38,688 nucleotides of DNA from a virus (Duplodnaviria > Heunggongvirae > Uroviricota > Caudoviricetes). The stretch lies in the IMG/VR virus record IMGVR_UViG_2703718837_000002; one strand, written 5' to 3'. The notes beneath the pieces were generated by a model that saw only the letters and a program-made list of their open reading frames with translations, did not search any database and had not been told where the DNA came from. Position 1 is the stretch's first letter. Every line of letters begins with the position of its first letter. This document shows positions 10,661 through 34,379 of this stretch, piece after piece. A program made the position numbers and the translations under genes.

Positions 10661-10693
10661 ATTGCTCTAATAAATTTGATTTATTAGAGCAAA
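10661..10693. promoter_or_regulatory. paired inverted C1 operators, left end of immI-like module 1
   Basis: A perfect ATTGCTCTAATAAATTT at 10661-10677, plus an inverted copy. Together they form TTGCTCTAATAAAT-TTG-ATTTATTAGAGCAA, 14-bp perfect arms. Confidence 0.85.
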
Positions 10694-10718: not shown

Positions 10719-10747
10719 TTGATCTCATCGTCGTTCAGGCTTATAGT
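10719..10747 (+). promoter_or_regulatory. sigma70 promoter candidate for the c4-icd-ant transcript (module 1)
   Basis: TTGATC-N17-TATAGT. Both hexamers and the spacing are conserved in module 2. A GATC lies within the -35 element. Confidence 0.55.
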
Positions 10748-10778
10748 TCCACCGTCGTAGCAAATTCTGCGACCAGGT

Positions 10779-10799
10779 TTGACAGCCTGAATACGAATG
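10779..10799 (+). promoter_or_regulatory. upstream c4-complementary site pair a1/b1 (module 1)
   Basis: TTGACAG-N7-ACGAATG. Both heptamers are exact complements of the c4 loop elements at 10904-10923. Confidence 0.55.
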
Positions 10800-10866
10800 C
10801 GGACAACCGCAGATTTCCGATATTGCGGTATTTTTGTGTCCGTAAACCACGTTACGCCCGAATTAT

Positions 10867-10943
10867 GGTGGGGCGTGATGGGGAGGCTTCGGCCTGCTGG
10901 TTTCATTCGTGCCAGTCTGTCAACCCTGTCACGTCCTGCCACC
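10867..10943 (+). ncRNA. c4: c4 antisense RNA, 77 nt (module 1)
   Basis: 77 nt. A closing stem (GGUGG...CCACC and CGUGA/UCACG), an AGGC-UUCG-GCCU hairpin, and a single-stranded CAUUCGU-GCCAGU-CUGUCAA element complementary to the sites flanking it. The size matches the published 77 nt c4 RNA. Confidence 0.8.
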
Positions 10944-10946
10944 TGT

Positions 10947-10985
10947 TTGACAGCGGGTCGCAGGTTGTTAAACCTACGAATGAGG
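10947..10985 (+). promoter_or_regulatory. c4 target a'/b' overlapping the icd ribosome binding site (module 1)
   Basis: TTGACAG-N22-ACGAATGAGG. The b' element abuts and overlaps the SD GAGG, 8 nt before the icd ATG. Confidence 0.65.
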
Positions 10986-10993
10986 CCGTAACT

Positions 10994-11215
10994 ATGGTTA
11001 ATGCCAATCCTTGCGCACGCCCTGAATTTATCTGGCGCTTTTACTCCTGCCAGAAACGTCACTATCACTTCGTAATTGCACCGACAGAAGATGAGGCCCG
11101 CTCTCTGCTTCCTGACGCTCCCTGCATTTTCTCTGCCCGCTTTTCCACTGATTCGCGCAACTCTCTCAGTTACTGGTGCCTCCCTGTTAACGCTTCTGCT
11201 CAGGAGGGACTATGA
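10994..11215 (+). CDS. icd: Icd-like 73-aa protein (module 1)
   Basis: 73 codons, the published size of P1 icd. Its stop overlaps the ant1 start (ATGA). Conserved in all three modules. Confidence 0.8.
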   Translation: MVNANPCARPEFIWRFYSCQKRHYHFVIAPTEDEARSLLPDAPCIFSARFSTDSRNSLSYWCLPVNASAQEGL

Positions 11216-12303
11216 GAACGTCATTAGTCACCCGTGAAGAAATGATTGAGGCAATTGAACAGCACACATCCTGTATCAGTACCAGGGATATACCGGGTGT
11301 TATTGCCAACTACTTCATGATCACCAAACAACTTTACCGGAGAAAGGACAAGAACGCGGTTCACCGCATTCTGTTGTCTGATATCCGCGAATACCTGCTC
11401 GAACAGGGTCGTCTTGATTATGCAACCGTAACCGCCGAAGCACGCAAGGAGGCACACAGGATGAAAGCAACTAATGTTAAATCAGAAAAAATTACCCTGC
11501 CTTCAGTTCAGGAATCCGAGCTGGTGGTTGTTCAGAATCAGTCTGATGAAATTCCCGTTCTGGAATGGCTGGGAGTGCGTGTCGTAACGACCGAAACTCT
11601 TGCTAGAGGGTATGGTACCGATGAAGCCAATATTCGTAAAAATTTGTCTCGCAACTCCGATCGCTTTGAAGAAGGCAAGCATTACTATCTCTTAACCGGT
11701 TCAAAGTTAAAGGAATTTAAAAGGCTAGTGACTATTAGTCACTTGGTTAGCAAATATACAAGTCAGGTAATTCTCTGGACAGAGCGCGGCGCTGCACGCA
11801 TGTCTAAGATCGTGGACACAAATGAAGCATGGGCATTCTTTGAAAAACTGGAAGACAGCTACTTCCGACAAAAAGAACAGCAACCGGTCTCAATTCCCCA
11901 GACGCTTCCAGAAGCTCTGCGCCTGGCTGCCGAGTTGGCAGAACAGAAAATGCAACTGGAACAACAGCTGGTGGCCGCAGCCCCTAAAGTCGATTTTGCC
12001 GACCGGGTATCAGTGGCTAAGGGGATCCTGATTGGAAATTTTGCAAAGGTTGTTGGACTTAAGCAAAACGCGCTGTTTGCCTGGTTACGGGAGAACGGCA
12101 TCCTGATTGCGTCCGGCGGACGTAAAAATGTACCGTTTCAGCAGTACATAAACGCCGGGTATTTCACGGTGAAAGAAGTGGTGCTGGATGATGAAGATGG
12201 CTACCAGATACGGTTGACGCCCCAGCTAACGGGGAAAGGCCAGCAGTGGCTGACGCGTAAACTGCTCGATGCAGGTTTATTAAAGCCTGTAGCGGCTGAG
12301 TGA
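11212..12303 (+). CDS. ant1: antirepressor Ant1 (363 aa), with in-frame Ant2 starting at 11461
   Basis: An ORF6N/KilA-N-like middle region (VRVVTTETLARGYG...RFEEGKHY) and a KilAC/ANT C-terminal domain. An internal ATG at codon 84 is preceded by AAGGAGG and gives 280 aa, consistent with P1 Ant1 (~42 kDa) and Ant2 (~32 kDa). Confidence 0.85.
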   Translation: MRTSLVTREEMIEAIEQHTSCISTRDIPGVIANYFMITKQLYRRKDKNAVHRILLSDIREYLLEQGRLDYATVTAEARKEAHRMKATNVKSEKITLPSVQESELVVVQNQSDEIPVLEWLGVRVVTTETLARGYGTDEANIRKNLSRNSDRFEEGKHYYLLTGSKLKEFKRLVTISHLVSKYTSQVILWTERGAARMSKIVDTNEAWAFFEKLEDSYFRQKEQQPVSIPQTLPEALRLAAELAEQKMQLEQQLVAAAPKVDFADRVSVAKGILIGNFAKVVGLKQNALFAWLRENGILIASGGRKNVPFQQYINAGYFTVKEVVLDDEDGYQIRLTPQLTGKGQQWLTRKLLDAGLLKPVAAE

Positions 12304-12315
12304 TTAAATTAAAAA

Positions 12316-12333
12316 GGCGGCCTTTCGGCCGCC
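12316..12333 (-). terminator. conserved module-end hairpin, minus-strand terminator
   Basis: GGCGGCC-TTTC-GGCCGCC with a T-run on the minus-strand side. An identical hairpin ends module 2. Confidence 0.5.
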
Positions 12334-12347
12334 AGTGATTTCAGATA

Positions 12348-12373
12348 CCCCGGCAGCCGCCGGGGTTATTTTT
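12348..12373 (+). terminator. intrinsic terminator after ant (module 1)
   Basis: CCCCGGC-AGCC-GCCGGGG followed by TTATTTTT. Confidence 0.6.
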
Positions 12374-12378
12374 GGTGG

Positions 12379-15109
<2,731 letters not shown>

Positions 15110-24202: not shown

Positions 24203-24231
24203 TTGATCTTCCTGTTGTTCAGGCTTATAGT
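24203..24231 (+). promoter_or_regulatory. sigma70 promoter candidate for c4-icd-ant (module 2)
   Basis: TTGATC-N17-TATAGT, with hexamers identical to module 1. Confidence 0.55.
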
Positions 24232-24262
24232 TCCTACGTCATAGCAAATTCTGCGACCGGGT

Positions 24263-24283
24263 TTAGCAGCCTGAATGTACATG
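24263..24283 (+). promoter_or_regulatory. upstream c4-complementary site pair a1/b1 (module 2)
   Basis: TTAGCAG-N7-GTACATG, exact complements of the c4 elements at 24389-24408. Confidence 0.55.
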
Positions 24284-24351
24284 CGGACAACCGCAGATTT
24301 CCGATATTGCGGTATTTTTATGTCCGTAAAACCGCGTTACGCCCGAATTAT

Positions 24352-24428
24352 GGTGGGGCGTGATGGGGAGGCTTCGGCCTGCTGGTTTCATGTACGCCAG
24401 TCTGCTAACCCCGTCACGTCCTGCCACC
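24352..24428 (+). ncRNA. c4: c4 antisense RNA, 77 nt (module 2, different specificity)
   Basis: The same scaffold as module 1. The recognition elements read CAUGUAC and CUGCUAA instead of CAUUCGU and CUGUCAA. Confidence 0.8.
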
Positions 24429-24431
24429 TGT

Positions 24432-24470
24432 TTAGCAGCGGGTAGCAGGTTGTTAAACCTGTACATGAGG
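24432..24470 (+). promoter_or_regulatory. c4 target a'/b' overlapping the icd ribosome binding site (module 2)
   Basis: TTAGCAG-N22-GTACATGAGG, with the SD GAGG 8 nt before the icd ATG. Confidence 0.65.
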
Positions 24471-24478
24471 CCGTAACT

Positions 24479-24700
24479 ATGGTTAATGCCAATCCTTGCG
24501 CACGCCCTGAATTTATCTGGCGCTTCTATTCTTGTCAAAAACGTCACTATCACTTCGTTATCGCACCAACAGAAGATGAGGCACGTTCTCAGCTTCCGGA
24601 TGCTCCCTGCATTTTCTCCGCCCGCTTTTCTACCGATTCGCGCAATTCTCTCAGTTACTGGTGCCTCCCTGTTAACGCTTCGGCTCAGGAGGGGCTATGA
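24479..24700 (+). CDS. icd: Icd-like 73-aa protein (module 2)
   Basis: 73 codons, differing from the module 1 copy at one residue (L/Q). ATGA overlap with ant1. Confidence 0.8.
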   Translation: MVNANPCARPEFIWRFYSCQKRHYHFVIAPTEDEARSQLPDAPCIFSARFSTDSRNSLSYWCLPVNASAQEGL

Positions 24701-25809
24701 GAACGTCATTAGTCACCCGTGAAGAGATGATCGAGGCAATTGAACAGCACACTGCCTGTATCAGTACCAGGGATATACCAGGTGTTATTGCCAACTACTT
24801 CATGATCACCAAACAACTTTACCGGAGAAAGGACAAGAACGCGGTTCACCGCATTCTGCTAACCGATATCCGTGAATACCTGCTCGAACAGGGTCATCTG
24901 AATTATGCAACCGTCGCAGCCGAAGCACGCAAGGAGGCACACAGAATGAAAGCAACTAACGTTAAATCAGAAAAAATTCATGCACCTTCAGTTCAGGAAT
25001 CAGAGCTGGTGGTTGTTCAGAATCAGCCTGATGAAATTCCCGTTCTGGAATGGCAGGGAGTACGTGTCGTGACAACCGAAACTCTTGCTAGAGGGTATGG
25101 GACCGAAACTAATAACATCAAAGTTAACTATACGCGTAATGCTGATCGCTTTGAGGAAGGTAAACATTACTTTCTACTAACTGGTTCAAAATTAAAAGAA
25201 TTGAAGGACAAGGTTACTCAAAGTAACTTAGTCGCACCGCGAGCAAAGCACCTCACTCTCTGGACGGAACGCGGCGCAGCCCGCCACGCTAAAATGATCG
25301 AAACCGATCAGGCATGGGCATTCTTTGAAAAACTGGAAGACAGCTACTTCCGACAAAAAGAACAGCAACCGGTTGCAATCCCCCAGACGCTTCCAGAAGC
25401 CCTGCGCCTGGCTGCCGAACTGGCTGAACAAAAGCAACTTCTGGAACAGAAAGCCCACCAGCTAAATCAGCAGCTGGTGGCCGCAGCCCCCAAAGTCGAT
25501 TTTGCCGACCGGGTATCAGTGGCCAAGGGGATCCTGATTGGGAATTTTGCAAAGGTTGTTGGACTTAAGCAAAACGCGCTGTTTGCCTGGTTACGGGAGA
25601 ACGGCATCCTGATAGCGTCCGGCGGACGTAAAAATGTGCCGTTCCAGCAATACATCAACGCCGGGTATTTTTCTGTGAAAGAAGTGGTGCTGGATGATGA
25701 AGATGGCTATCAGATACGACTGACGCCCCAGTTAACGGGGAAAGGCCAGCAGTGGTTGACGCGTAAACTGCTCGATGCTGGCTTGTTAAAACCGGTGGCG
25801 GCTGAGTGA
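24697..25809 (+). CDS. ant1: antirepressor Ant1 (370 aa), with in-frame Ant2 starting at 24946
   Basis: The same architecture as module 1. The central ~65 aa are divergent, and there is a 7-aa insertion in the coiled-coil linker. Confidence 0.85.
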   Translation: MRTSLVTREEMIEAIEQHTACISTRDIPGVIANYFMITKQLYRRKDKNAVHRILLTDIREYLLEQGHLNYATVAAEARKEAHRMKATNVKSEKIHAPSVQESELVVVQNQPDEIPVLEWQGVRVVTTETLARGYGTETNNIKVNYTRNADRFEEGKHYFLLTGSKLKELKDKVTQSNLVAPRAKHLTLWTERGAARHAKMIETDQAWAFFEKLEDSYFRQKEQQPVAIPQTLPEALRLAAELAEQKQLLEQKAHQLNQQLVAAAPKVDFADRVSVAKGILIGNFAKVVGLKQNALFAWLRENGILIASGGRKNVPFQQYINAGYFSVKEVVLDDEDGYQIRLTPQLTGKGQQWLTRKLLDAGLLKPVAAE

Positions 25810-25817
25810 TTAAAAAA

Positions 25818-25835
25818 GGCGGCCTTTCGGCCGCC
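25818..25835 (-). terminator. conserved module-end hairpin (module 2)
   Basis: GGCGGCC-TTTC-GGCCGCC with T6 on the minus-strand side. Identical to 12316-12333. Confidence 0.5.
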
Positions 25836-25888
25836 AATGATGTCACGGAGTCTGTAATAGCAATGTCTTTGTAGTTGACTAATTATAT

Positions 25889-28587: not shown

Positions 28588-29439
28588 ATGATAAATTATG
28601 TCTACGGCGAACAACTGTACCAGGAGTTCGTCAGCTTCAGGGATCTCTTTCTAAAAAAAGCTGTTGCACGCGCCCAACACGTTGATGCCGCCAGCGACGG
28701 TCGTCCTGTTCGCCCGGTTGTCGTTCTGCCGTTCAAAGAAACGGACAGCATTCAGGCTGAAATTGATAAATGGACTTTAATGGCGCGGGAACTGGAACAG
28801 TACCCAGACCTCAATATCCCAAAGACTATTTTATATCCAGTGCCTAACATCCTTCGCGGTGTGCGTAAGGTTACAACTTATCAGACAGAAGCTGTGAACA
28901 GCGTCAACATGACCGCTGGCCGCATTATTCATCTGATTGATAAGGACATTCGCATCCAGAAAAGCGCGGGGATCAATGAGCACAGTGCGAAATACATAGA
29001 GAACCTGGAAGCAACAAAAGAGCTAATGAAGCAGTACCCGGAGGATGAAAAATTCCGTATGCGTGTACACGGCTTTAGCGAAACAATGCTGCGCGTCCAT
29101 TACATTTCCAGTAGCCCTAACTACAATGATGGTAAATCAGTTAGTTACCATGTGCCGCTGTGTGGTGTGTTTATCTGCGATGAAACTCTCCGTGATGGAA
29201 TCATCATCAACGGTGAATTCGAGAAAGCAAAATTTAGCCTTTATGACTCTATAGAACCGATCATCTGCGACCGCTGGCCGCAGGCAAAAATATATCGCCT
29301 GGCAGATATTGAAAATGTAAAAAAACAAATTGCCATCACTCGCGAAGAGAAAAAGGTCAAATCAGCCGCATCAGTTACGCGCAGCCGTAAAACCAAGAAG
29401 GGGCAGCCAGTAAACGACAACCCCGAAAGCGCGCAATAA
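28588..29439 (+). CDS. c1: C1 repressor of lysis
   Basis: 283 aa, the size of P1 C1. SD GGAGGAGG. Located next to coi and the operator cluster. Confidence 0.97.
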   Translation: MINYVYGEQLYQEFVSFRDLFLKKAVARAQHVDAASDGRPVRPVVVLPFKETDSIQAEIDKWTLMARELEQYPDLNIPKTILYPVPNILRGVRKVTTYQTEAVNSVNMTAGRIIHLIDKDIRIQKSAGINEHSAKYIENLEATKELMKQYPEDEKFRMRVHGFSETMLRVHYISSSPNYNDGKSVSYHVPLCGVFICDETLRDGIIINGEFEKAKFSLYDSIEPIICDRWPQAKIYRLADIENVKKQIAITREEKKVKSAASVTRSRKTKKGQPVNDNPESAQ

Positions 29440-29442
29440 ATT

Positions 29443-29465
29443 ATGCCCGGCATCAACCGGGCATT
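29443..29465. terminator. bidirectional hairpin between convergent c1 and ant (module 3)
   Basis: TGCCCGG-N6-CCGGGCA, T-rich on both sides. It sits 3 nt after the c1 stop and 7 nt after the ant stop. Confidence 0.6.
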
Positions 29466-29471
29466 CTTCCA

Positions 29472-30584
29472 TTATTCAGCCGCCACCGGTTTTAACAAGC
29501 CAGCATCGAGCAGTTTACGCGTCAACCACTGCTGGCCTTTACCCGTTAATTGGGGCGTCAGCCGTATCTGGTAGCCATTTTCATCATCCAGCACCACTTC
29601 TTTCACCGTGAAATACCCCGCGTTGATGTACTGCTGGAACGGCACATTTTTACGTCCACCGGACGCTATCAGGATGCCGTTCTCCCGTAACCAGACAAAC
29701 AGCGCGTTTTGCTTAAGTCCAACAACCTTTGCAAAATTCCCAATCAGGATCCCTTTAGCTACTGATACCCGGTCGGCAAAATCGACTTTAGGAGCGGCGG
29801 CCACCAGCTGCTGATTTAGCTGGTGGGCTTTCTGTTCCAGAAGTTGCTTTTGTTCAGCCAGCTCGGCAGCCAGACGCAGGGCTTCTGGAAGCGTCTGGGG
29901 GATTGCGATCGGTTGCTGTTCTTTTTGTCGGAAGTAGTTGTCTTCCAGTTTTTCAAAGAATGCCCATGCTTCATTTGTGTCCACGATCTTAGACATGCGT
30001 GCAGCGCCGCGCTCTGTCCAGAGTGTAAGGCTTCTGGCGTTCTTACCAACAGAGTAACTTCCGGTTACTCTGTTCTTAAATTCTCTTAATTTTAAACCAG
30101 TTAGAAGAAAGTAATGCTTACCTTCTTCAAAGCGGTCAAGGTTGCGAGACAAATTGTTGCGAATATTGGCTTCATCGACCCCATACCCTCTAGCAAGAGT
30201 TTCGGTTGTCACGACACGTACTCCCTGCCATTCCAGAACGGGAATTTCATCCGGCTGATTCTGAACAACCACCAGCTCTGATTCCTGAACTGAAGGTGCA
30301 TAAATTTTTTCTGATTTAACGTTAGTTGCTTTCATTCTGTGTGCCTCCTTGCGTGCTTCGGCTGCGACGGTTGCGTAATTCAGATGACCCTGTTCGAGCA
30401 GGTATTCACGGATATCGGTTAGCAGAATGCGGTGAACCGCGTGTTTGTCCTTTCTCCGGTAAAGTTGTTTGGTGATCATGAAGTAGTTGGCAATAACGCC
30501 CGGTATATCCTTGGTACTGATACAGGCAGTGTGCTGTTCAATTGCCTCGATCATCTCTTCACGGGTGACTAATGACGTTCTCAT
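29472..30584 (-). CDS. ant1: antirepressor Ant1 (370 aa), with in-frame Ant2 starting at 30335 (module 3)
   Basis: The same architecture as modules 1 and 2. A third variant of the central region. AAGGAGG precedes the internal ATG. Confidence 0.85.
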   Translation of the reverse strand: MRTSLVTREEMIEAIEQHTACISTKDIPGVIANYFMITKQLYRRKDKHAVHRILLTDIREYLLEQGHLNYATVAAEARKEAHRMKATNVKSEKIYAPSVQESELVVVQNQPDEIPVLEWQGVRVVTTETLARGYGVDEANIRNNLSRNLDRFEEGKHYFLLTGLKLREFKNRVTGSYSVGKNARSLTLWTERGAARMSKIVDTNEAWAFFEKLEDNYFRQKEQQPIAIPQTLPEALRLAAELAEQKQLLEQKAHQLNQQLVAAAPKVDFADRVSVAKGILIGNFAKVVGLKQNALFVWLRENGILIASGGRKNVPFQQYINAGYFTVKEVVLDDENGYQIRLTPQLTGKGQQWLTRKLLDAGLLKPVAAE

Positions 30585-30802
30585 AGTCCCTCCTGAGCAG
30601 AAGCGTTAACAGGGAGGCACCAGTAACTGAGAGAGTTGCGCGAATCAGTGGAAAAGCGGGCAGAGAAAATGCAGGGAGCGTCAGGAAGCTGAGAACGGGC
30701 CTCATCTTCTGTCGGTGCAATAACGAAGTGATAGTGACGTTTCTGGCAGGAATAGAAGCGCCAGATGAATTCAGGATGAGTTGGGGTAGGGACAGTAGCC
30801 AT
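30581..30802 (-). CDS. icd: Icd-like 73-aa protein (module 3, variant N-terminus)
   Basis: 73 codons. The first 9 residues differ (MATVPTPTH versus MVNANPCAR) and the rest is essentially identical. ATGA overlap with ant1. Confidence 0.75.
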   Translation of the reverse strand: MATVPTPTHPEFIWRFYSCQKRHYHFVIAPTEDEARSQLPDAPCIFSARFSTDSRNSLSYWCLPVNASAQEGL

Positions 30803-30810
30803 AATGGCAG

Positions 30811-30852
30811 CCTCCTTTGACTAAGTTAAGGAGCTACCGCGTGAGGTCTCAA
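30811..30852 (-). promoter_or_regulatory. target a'/b' overlapping the icd ribosome binding site (module 3)
   Basis: The minus strand reads TTGAGAC-N24-GTCAAAGGAGG. Both elements complement the loop of the RNA at 30860-30938. The SD GGAGG is included. Confidence 0.6.
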
Positions 30853-30859
30853 TCTCAAT

Positions 30860-30938
30860 GGCGGTAGCACTGACTGGGTTGAGACTACCGGCGTCAAAGG
30901 GAACCGGCCTGCCTTTCGGCAGCCCAGCCAGCACTACC
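30860..30938 (-). ncRNA. c4-analogous antisense RNA on an unrelated scaffold (module 3)
   Basis: About 76-79 nt. A 13-bp closing stem (GGUAGUGCUGGCU / AGUCAGUGCUACC, including G-U pairs), a CUGCC-GAAA-GGCAG hairpin, and the single-stranded elements CCCUUUGAC and GUCUCAA. Confidence 0.65.
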
Positions 30939-30985
30939 ATTGATTTCGGAGCTAAACGCTACGTATGGCTGTGCGATGGCATGAC

Positions 30986-31011
30986 ACAAAAAAAAGACGC
31001 TTTCGGCGTCT
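30986..31011 (-). terminator. intrinsic terminator inside the module 3 leader, between the decoy site and the RNA gene
   Basis: The minus strand reads AGACGC-CGAAA-GCGTCT followed by T8. Confidence 0.55.
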
Positions 31012-31017
31012 GTGTCG

Positions 31018-31042
31018 CCTTTGACATTATTCGGGGTCTCAA
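31018..31042 (-). promoter_or_regulatory. upstream complementary site pair a1/b1 (module 3)
   Basis: The minus strand reads TTGAGAC-N10-GTCAAAGG. Confidence 0.5.
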
Positions 31043-31142
31043 TCCCGGCACCCGTTTTAATGAGGTGCCTGATAAGCATAAACCGAAAATGCCTCAAGGC
31101 GCAAGAGGTCAGGTTCAATGTAACATCGGCAGTTAAAAAACA

Positions 31143-31159
31143 CAATTTATTAGAGCAAA
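31143..31159 (-). promoter_or_regulatory. C1 operator, start of module 3, abutting the pacB stop
   Basis: The minus strand reads TTTGCTCTAATAAATTG, 15 of 17 matches. Confidence 0.7.
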
Positions 31160-33926: not shown

Positions 33927-34379
33927 TCAGATACGTGCGGATGTGGCATTACCGTAATGACGGTGCTGACGGGCCACCTTATTGAAAAGTTGACGCGCCA
34001 TTACCCAAGGCTGATGCTCCCGGCGTTCCTTTTCGTCCTGCGTCATATAGAGTTCGTTCTGGAGTTTTTCATCAAACCGGCGCGGCGCGCGGCTGCGGCG
34101 AAAGAATTCAGGATTCAGAGAGTGGATCTGAAATCTACGTGGGCGTGTACTGTCATCAATCAAAACAGACGAATACTTAGACACAGCGATAGCCTTTAAG
34201 CGCAGATAAACGTCGCGCTTATCGACATCCAGATGCGGGTATTCCTTTTCAAGGATTGCTGCGAGTTCTTTCGCTGATAGAAGAGACTTAGTGCGGATCA
34301 TGTAATCCGCAATCTCATACGATGTTATTCGTGAGTGATTTATTTCCATGAAGTGGCGTCCCTGCCAGTTAAGTAACAT
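33927..34379 (-). CDS. lpa: Lpa (gp10), late promoter activator
   Basis: 150 aa, directly upstream of pacA and downstream of a C1 operator, as described for P1 gene 10. Confidence 0.8.
   Translation of the reverse strand: MLLNWQGRHFMEINHSRITSYEIADYMIRTKSLLSAKELAAILEKEYPHLDVDKRDVYLRLKAIAVSKYSSVLIDDSTRPRRFQIHSLNPEFFRRSRAPRRFDEKLQNELYMTQDEKERREHQPWVMARQLFNKVARQHRHYGNATSARI

Follow-up and report, generated by a model that had tools for sequence, protein, structure and literature searches.

A C4/IsrK-type antirepressor operon between pacB and c1 of a P1-like phage-plasmid

The locus and its features

The stretch of DNA analysed here, hereafter the window, is the virus record IMGVR_UViG_2703718837_000002 of IMG/VR (38,688 nucleotides (nt)). 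It is part of a P1-like phage-plasmid and its genes include darB, prt, pro, cre, c1, pacB and pacA; its nearest records are P1-like plasmids from Escherichia albertii and Escherichia coli, with ~96% identity over 24 kb. The window contains three c4-icd-ant modules, at 10741-12303 (+), 24225-25809 (+) and 29472-31159 (-). The third of these, module 3, is the subject of this report and all of its coordinates refer to the minus strand. It occupies exactly the interval from the pacB stop to the c1 stop, in place of the 24-nt pacB-c1 spacer of P1. This is not the canonical position of immI, between sim and kilA-repL. A fourth module is possible, as the canonical immI site next to kilA-repL falls outside the window, and phage JL22 has both a canonical immI module and a pacB-c1 module.

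Module 3 is very probably an intact extra c4-icd-ant (immI-type) operon, controlled by a small RNA and homologous to modules 1 and 2 throughout, including its RNA part. It is a C4/IsrK-controlled antirepressor operon of the type found in D6 and lambdoid phages, located at a known P1 hot spot. An earlier note, made by a model from the letters of the window, had described the order operator, a1/b1, terminator, RNA, second pair of sites, icd and ant; the module is complete and almost every one of these elements was found where it had been placed. The naming follows P1 usage, in which a2/b2 denotes the pair of sites on the mRNA close to icd and a'/b' the pair within the RNA (the earlier note used a'/b' for the mRNA sites). 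The identities of the proteins are unambiguous. The features of the locus are as follows.

31143-31159 (-): C1 repressor operator, counterpart of P1 Op51; TTTGCTCTAATAAATTG, with two mismatches to the P1 C1 operator consensus ATTGCTCTAATAAATTT; 4 nt after the pacB stop codon
31117-31145 (-): candidate operator-overlapped promoter, P51a-like; TTGTGT-17 nt-TACATT, assigned from the same operator-relative position as P1 P2c4/P51a
31075-31104 (-): candidate constitutive promoter, P51b-like; TTGCGC-18 nt-TATGCT, ending 6 nt before the leader hairpin
30990-31068 (-): IsrK-family leader RNA, with hairpin 1, hairpin 2 carrying the a1 loop, b1 linker and intrinsic terminator
31036-31042 (-): a1, TTGAGAC, complement of a' in the RNA
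31018-31025 (-): b1, GTCAAAGG, complement of b' in the RNA
30988-31011 (-): intrinsic terminator of the leader, from a terminator scan; AGACGC-CGAAA-GCGTCT (stem of 6 base pairs (bp), CGAAA loop) followed by T8
30860-30938 (-): C4-family antisense RNA, ~79 nt; ends predicted by alignment to the annotated P1 C4; Rfam match at 30857-30944
30893-30900 (-): b', CCTTTGAC, inside the 12-nt loop of RNA hairpin 2
30879-30885 (-): a', GTCTCAA, in the single-stranded junction of the RNA
30846-30852 (-): a2, TTGAGAC in the icd leader, preceded by the partial repeat TTGAGA
30811-30821 (-): b2, GTCAAAGG (30821-30814), fused to the icd Shine-Dalgarno GGAGG
30581-30802 (-): icd, 73 amino acids (aa); NCBIfam phage_ICD_like, 49.8 bits; its stop overlaps the ant ATG (ATGA)
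29472-30584 (-): ant1, 370 aa; Pfam ANT, 106.7 bits, and ORF6N, 66.7 bits; ORF6N and KilAC domains
29443-29464 (no strand assigned): GC-rich hairpin between the convergent ant and c1 stops, candidate bidirectional terminator; minus-strand terminator scan
28588-29439 (+): c1 repressor gene; NCBIfam phage_rep_C1 equivalog, 610.9 bits

At Rfam gathering thresholds the window has three matches to the C4 family (RF01695, gathering score 45 bits). Module 3 is the best of the three with 75.4 bits (30944-30857, -), followed by module 2 with 70.8 bits (24346-24431, +) and module 1 with 69.8 bits (10861-10946, +). The module 3 RNA folds at -46.5 kcal/mol (z = -5.4), a stability reached by 0 of 200 shuffles. 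A closing stem of 16-17 bp encloses two hairpins, the first with a GAAA loop and the second of 5 bp (GCCGG/CCGGU) with the 12-nt loop that holds b'. The predicted ~77-nt RNA with a long closing stem and a GAAA tetraloop hairpin, which had been read from the sequence, has its counterpart at 30938-30860. Its internal structure is to be corrected: a single hairpin with both complements single-stranded had been described, but the closing stem encloses a pair of hairpins, the loop of hairpin 2 holds b' and only a' is in the junction. This layout is exactly that of P1 C4, and an identical three-helix minimum-free-energy topology is found in all six C4 RNAs compared.

Upstream of the RNA, the leader matches the Rfam family isrK (RF01394, gathering score 50) with 59.8 bits at 31068-30990 (-). 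It folds at -26.4 kcal/mol (z = -2.8), with two abutting hairpins (hairpin 1 at 31068-31048, hairpin 2 at 31047-31032), a linker and a terminator visible. The a1-b1 spacer is exactly 10 nt, and the leader terminator coincides with the terminator part of the isrK model.

Operator-like C1 sites number 12 in the window, against 0.22 expected. Modules 2 and 3 have one good operator site each, unlike module 1, whose operator (10661-10693) is a near-palindromic double site in which a perfect operator and an inverted copy (3 mismatches) share one base. The geometry of the P51b-like promoter recurs in D6 (TTGCGC-18-TATATT) and in Gifsy-1 of Salmonella (TTGACA-18-TATATT), and the IsrK numbering published for Gifsy-1 puts +1 at the point that matches this promoter (PMC4825925). 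A strict promoter scanner reported no promoter in the module 3 leader, the two listed being placed by position only.

At the downstream end, an internal ant2 start is found at 30335-30333, behind AAGGAGG, and this M84 start is conserved. The Ant protein of module 3 has 90% identity to that of modules 1 and 2, and 60% to Ant1 of P1 and P7. The ant stop codon (29474-29472) is followed 7 nt later by the GC-rich hairpin, which ends 3 nt from the c1 stop (29439); the shared hairpin at the convergent c1 stop, already pointed out in the earlier note, is real. It folds at -18.0 kcal/mol when read on the minus strand and at -15.2 kcal/mol on the plus strand, and it is invariant in five distinct relatives. 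Inheritance from the P1 pacB-c1 spacer was considered and rejected, as P1 has no such hairpin. By comparison of these sequences, the hairpin evidently arrived together with module 3. From the geometry only, it is possible that read-through of ant would be antisense to c1, which is opposed by the stable hairpin. Modules 1 and 2 (12304-12400, 25810-25860) end in the same GC-rich hairpin as each other, GGCGGCC-TTTC-GGCCGCC after an A run. In that orientation it reads as an opposite-strand terminator, and the hairpin of module 3 is a different one.

Pairing sites and the regulatory switch

Under the reading of module 3 as an intact operon, the operator-overlapped promoter and the weak downstream promoter would transcribe an IsrK-type leader bearing a1/b1, and the majority of transcripts would end at the leader terminator. 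Read-through transcripts would carry the C4-family RNA, probably excised by RNase P as in P1. Two segments of this RNA, b' in the hairpin loop and a' in the junction, are complementary to a2/b2 and covary with them; by pairing they would hide the ribosome-binding site of icd. Without icd translation, the overlapping ant1/ant2 would stay unexpressed. In P1, the loss of icd translation silences ant through Rho-dependent polarity. The C1 protein would bind the operator and be the target of Ant, and on failure of C4 control Ant would inactivate the C1 repressor, by analogy with P1 and Gifsy-1.

A downstream a/b pair with the b site over the Shine-Dalgarno GGAGG had been predicted and was found (a2 at 30852-30846, b2 at 30821-30814). 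The b2 site continues straight into AGG and therefore covers the GGAGG before the icd ATG (30802). The a and b words (7-8-mers) or their complements have four occurrences each in the window, on both strands, and three of the four are inside the 210-nt leader. The a2 region (30840-30856, -) contains a short tandem repeat, ATTGAGA-TTGAGAC, that gives two overlapping registers for a'. This repeat is also present in D6.

An exact-word scan of IMG/VR for the junction of hairpins 1 and 2 returned 71 loci, 69 of them usable copies of the module 3 scaffold. Two a alleles (TTGAGAC and TTGGAAC) and two b alleles (GTCAAAGG and GCAAAAGG) occur among these copies, and all four a x b combinations are present (24, 19, 18 and 7 copies), module 3 having the rarest. 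The b1/b'/b2 sites are concordant in 69/69 copies and the a1/a'/a2 sites in 68/69, the lone exception having a mismatched a1. A broader comparison takes in 13 systems, namely modules 1-3, P1, P7, the canonical immI of JL22, D6, E. albertii, phiP27, PhiR12_3, Stx1a, pLG24p2 and Gifsy-1. These have 13 distinct a/b combinations and 11 distinct b' loops. Each of the 13 has matching sites on both sides of the RNA, with conserved spacing, and a b2 immediately adjacent to the Shine-Dalgarno.

The b specificities of modules 1-3 are ACGAATG, GTACATG and GTCAAAGG, respectively, none of which is the same as that of P1 (GTTAGTG) or P7 (GATTGTG). For the b' loop, duplex energies range from -11 to -13 kcal/mol with cognate partners and from -2 to -8 kcal/mol with non-cognate ones. 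From these values, orthogonality is predicted among modules 1-3 and also towards P1, P7 and D6. It is predicted from these sequences that the prophage makes at least three non-cross-reacting C4 RNAs, each over a near-identical antirepressor. The canonical immI C4 of JL22 (43517-43602) combines the a segment of P1 (CTGTCAA) with the b segment of P7 (CACAATC), and appears to be a natural recombinant specificity.

An addition to the intact-operon reading, and not an alternative to it, is that the short IsrK-like leader RNA may titrate its cognate C4 in trans via a1/b1, and so switch icd-ant translation on. The analogy is with Gifsy-1, as the module 3 leader is a member of the IsrK family. In that prophage, short IsrK supplied in trans raises the translation of the antirepressor gene anrP ~140-fold, and the a1-loop mutants G28A and G31A abolish the rise (PMC4825925, Tables 1B, 1F). 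It is also consistent with such a role that a1/b1 covary with a'/b' in 68-69 of the 69 copies though they overlap no ribosome-binding site. However, the Gifsy-1 authors invoke refolding of the long transcript and not titration of a processed RNA (PMC4825925), and orf45/STnc1160 co-expressed with IsrK strengthened, rather than countered, the IsrK-mediated growth arrest (PMC4825925, Discussion). One of the 69 copies tolerates a mismatched a1, and for P1-like phages the role is proposed by analogy with Gifsy-1 only. On balance, a decoy function of the leader is plausible but rated at somewhat less than an even chance.

A more tentative proposal, rated slightly below the decoy function by itself, is that each module is a three-RNA switch, in which the terminated IsrK-like leader would act as trans decoy for its own C4, joined to a combinatorial a/b address code that would let one phage-plasmid hold at least three orthogonal switches. 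In that case C4 would be titrated when the C1-controlled promoter gave a burst of transcripts, and icd-ant would be freed. The code would comprise the 2 a x 2 b alleles found within one scaffold, in all four combinations, and at least 11 b specificities overall. If this is true, a prophage with several C4 types would have simultaneous immunity against superinfecting relatives of several immI types, and an infecting phage could defeat lysogens missing any one of its C4 types.

It is far less probable that module 3 is a silent or decaying duplicate, a by-product of hot-spot recombination that has no independent regulatory function. Such an origin is suggested by the presence of a third near-identical ant within 38 kb, by the absence of module 3 from P1 itself and by the weak promoter matches. 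Yet none of the elements is damaged, and the complementarity of a and b is perfect across their three copies. The module is found at the same site in phages RCS47 and JL22, and its leader in 449 PLSDB plasmids (309 with at least 80% of the leader) and 421 of 5,426 complete E. coli genomes (~8%), where 439 of 456 places are on plasmids. The a1/a'/a2 and b1/b'/b2 triplets moreover stay concordant at the site while the alleles change, which requires selection on pairing. A decayed duplicate is accordingly rejected on intactness, prevalence and concerted allele changes.

The RNA part as a diverged member of the C4 family

The earlier note had seen no similarity to modules 1 and 2 from the operator to early icd, with resumption inside icd. 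This is borne out by blastn (word size 7), in which only the 15-17 nt operator is shared upstream of 30775 (icd codon 10), and identity to modules 1 and 2 is 89-91% from 30775 to the ant stop. The conclusion drawn there, of an unrelated RNA scaffold, does not hold, since all three RNAs belong to the Rfam family C4, a model built from the module 3 type recovers P1-type RNAs and the stems are compensatory.

Training of this covariance model was confined to the module 3 type, with seven RNAs (those of module 3, D6, an E. albertii plasmid, phiP27, PhiR12_3, an Stx1a phage and pLG24p2). The C4 RNAs of module 1, module 2, P1 and P7 score 51-55 bits on it (E ~1e-9 to 2e-10). Folding of 30860-30938 and covariation among homologs, proposed as checks in the earlier note, gave a stable structure in which many pairs show compensatory changes. 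In a gapless MAFFT alignment of seven homologs, 189/189 pair cells (100%) are standard pairs and 13 of 27 pairs are changed on both sides; in slid controls of this alignment at most 52% of cells pair. A second alignment, of 14 RNAs from the two types, has 99.5% of its cells paired and compensatory changes at 19 of 27 pairs; it was fitted to the model structure, which favours pairing, and the seven-sequence alignment was not so fitted. A MAFFT alignment of 13 C4 RNAs set the P1 type and the module 3 type one register off in hairpin 1 and the 3' arm. Because of this shift it was not used for pair counts, and the gapless seven-sequence and model-guided alignments were used instead.

When aligned by structure, the RNAs of modules 3 and 1 are 60% identical (50/84) and their stems differ by compensatory changes. 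The blocks AUGG, GGG, GC.GGU, CAACCC and CC are invariant among the aligned C4 RNAs, and the ends keep AU|GG (5') and CC (3'). Two forms bridge the types: the C4 of Gifsy-1 has a P1-like closing stem with a GAAA loop, and the E. albertii allele combines a frame of module 3 length with a UUCG loop and a GCUGG hairpin.

The leaders present a similar picture. With 57.1 and 47.5 bits, those of modules 1 and 2 exceed the threshold of the P1-type leader family c4-a1b1 (RF03163, gathering score 46.7 bits), and that of module 3 remains below it with 22.5 bits (E = 0.0015). On the isrK model the module 1 leader scores 44.1 bits. The Gifsy-1 leader is above gathering on both isrK (79.3 bits) and c4-a1b1 (48.1 bits). 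Judged by these scores, the leaders of modules 1/2 and 3 are homologous, with the same architecture and diverged sequence. RF01394 and RF03163 are, by the same comparison, overlapping parts of one element, composed of hairpin 1, hairpin 2 with the a1 loop, a GAAUA linker, b1 and the terminator.

The view that convergence, or the recruitment of another RNA, recreated one regulatory scheme on an RNA scaffold of separate evolutionary origin can draw on the blastn result, on the differing tetraloops (GAAA against UUCG) and on the Rfam families of the two leader types, which differ and have no common clan, but it is refuted by the Rfam C4 and isrK scores, the cross-recovery of P1-type RNAs (E ~1e-9) and the compensatory changes among 14 RNAs, with the structural identity, the invariant blocks, the bridging forms and the cross-scoring leaders against it as well, and is highly improbable. 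As far as these alignments go, the RNA of module 3 belongs, in diverged form, to the known C4 family. With one RNA family in all three modules, divergence is fastest in sequence, and structure is kept.

Several points weigh against the reading of module 3 as an intact, RNA-controlled operon homologous to modules 1 and 2, besides the fitting of the 14-sequence alignment. Expression of this copy is predicted from its sequence. Both candidate promoters are weak (7 of the 12 consensus positions match), and the strict scanner reported neither. The three near-identical Ant proteins seem redundant and at least one copy could be silent. Duplex energies of a' separate the modules poorly (-7.8 vs -8.8 kcal/mol), so that the predicted orthogonality rests mainly on b.

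The proposal that the regulatory RNA part is an exchangeable cassette has fared well, as the same cassette occurs with another promoter and ant in D6, and another cassette at the same site in E. albertii. D6 shares the leader, the C4 RNA and the first ~20 icd codons (31112-30654 in the window) at 86% identity, with 90-93% over the core. The E. albertii plasmids keep the operator, promoter region, hairpin 1, Shine-Dalgarno, icd and ant at the pacB-c1 site; from a1 to b2 their cassette differs, with a TTGGCCT, b GTCTAAGG and a UUCG loop. In module 3, the first nine codons of icd are part of the cassette, and from codon 10 on the gene is shared with modules 1 and 2 (blastn breakpoint at 30775). 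These sequence comparisons support the view that the regulatory segment behaves as an exchangeable cassette.

There is also an open reading frame (ORF) of 39 codons (30824-30940, -) that begins at the invariant AUGG of the C4 5' end and crosses the RNA gene. Its 39-aa product matches Pfam Phage_ASH with 28.3 bits (gathering score 26). NCBIfam returned no match for this ORF and none for Ant, and Pfam matched both. RefSeq labels the C4-overlapping ORF as 'ash family protein' in hundreds of plasmids, and its position equals that of 'orf45' in Gifsy-1. The Ash family at C4 loci may be a translation of the C4 gene. As the annotations stand, small-protein labels are wrongly given to RNA genes at these loci.

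Comparison with known systems

A BLASTN search for the occurrence of this leader type finds it in RCS47, JL22, D6, P1-like plasmids and E. coli genomes, and many lambdoid phages, Stx phages among them, have related leaders at 67-68% identity. An ant inserted between pacB and c1 is already on record (PMC6906374), and homologs of c4 and icd, second copies included, have been noted in D6-like plasmids (PMC6799933). In the records of pacB-c1 modules the RNA genes are unannotated, the C4 region being labelled as a hypothetical protein or 'ash family protein'. Extra c4-icd-ant modules are a common cargo of P1-like phage-plasmids, which spread antibiotic-resistance genes, and they probably decide which related phage-plasmids co-exist or displace one another.

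On the minus strand of Gifsy-1, isrK lies at 34316-34240, a C4-family RNA at 34214-34131 (69 bits) and the antirepressor ATG at 34076, with a GGAGG covered by a2/b2 before this ATG. The isrK-C4-antirepressor tandem is found in six further loci. Compensatory mutants have been published for Gifsy-1, G28A/C162U and G31A/C159U (PMC4825925, Table 1). IsrK G28 and G31 fall in a1, and C159 and C162 in a' of C4 (in the numbering of that paper, where A107 is the first AUG of orf45), which makes these mutants a demonstration that a1 pairs with a'. Only for Gifsy-1 is IsrK known to bind Hfq and to trans-activate translation of the antirepressor (PMC4825925). The model published in that paper makes no mention of C4 (PMC4825925), Rfam holds isrK outside the C4 clan and a 2025 review lists IsrK and c4 as separate entries (PMC12197685). 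No paper equating IsrK with the C4 a1/b1 leader was found in the literature searched, the coverage of which is incomplete, and this is absence of evidence only. As a testable reinterpretation, IsrK would be the a1/b1 leader of a C4 system, and IsrK/orf45/STnc1160 of Gifsy-1 would be such a system. The literatures on P1 C4 and Salmonella IsrK, treated separately, are now linked.

Two side observations concern the number of C4-like RNAs at a locus. In the Salmonella plasmid pLG24p2, a single isrK-type leader precedes two tandem C4-family RNAs (1744-1831, 2095-2182). In D6, another C4-like match, weaker than the main one (40 bits, 2574-2653), lies ~470 nt upstream of it.

A possible parallel is the CI RNA of phage P4 with seqA/seqC, a processed small RNA that pairs with complementary sites up- and downstream in its own transcript. 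P4 CI leads to premature transcription termination of the replication genes, and not to occlusion of an antirepressor ribosome-binding site. IsrK was called a structural homolog of P4 SeqA by its authors (PMC4825925, Discussion). Like module 3, the isrK-STnc1160/orf45-anrP region of Gifsy-1 has an IsrK-family leader followed within ~25-50 nt by a C4 RNA, a Shine-Dalgarno covered by a2/b2 and an antirepressor, and it has the same promoter geometry. Unlike module 3, it has no icd, the antirepressor following directly, belongs to a lambdoid prophage with a different repressor and has different a/b sites.

The immI-like region of D6 and the D6-like plasmid prophages have the same scaffold as module 3 and an identical a (TTGAGAC), but D6 has GCAAAAGG at all three b sites. 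D6 also differs upstream, where the aligned stretch contains no match to a P1-type operator, and its antirepressor is another protein of 313 aa. RCS47, JL22, pTZ20_1P and many P1-like plasmids have the same pacB-c1 site and gene content at 96-99% identity, the JL22 module differing from module 3 in its b allele (GCAAAAGG); the E. albertii plasmids differ at this site in the cassette from a1 to b2.

The immI regions of P1 and P7 (Op51, a1/b1, c4, a2/b2, icd, ant1/ant2) have the same order of elements as module 3 and a C1 operator. Common to both are b' in a hairpin loop, a' in the junction and b2 over the icd Shine-Dalgarno, as well as the icd/ant overlap and the dual Ant1/Ant2 starts. Unlike these regions, module 3 lies between pacB and c1, has its own a/b specificity and is without BLAST-level similarity from the operator to icd codon 10. 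Its RNA has a GAAA in place of a UUCG loop and a closing stem without the bulge of P1/P7 C4, and the middle domain of its Ant is ORF6N, with only 60% identity to P1 Ant1.

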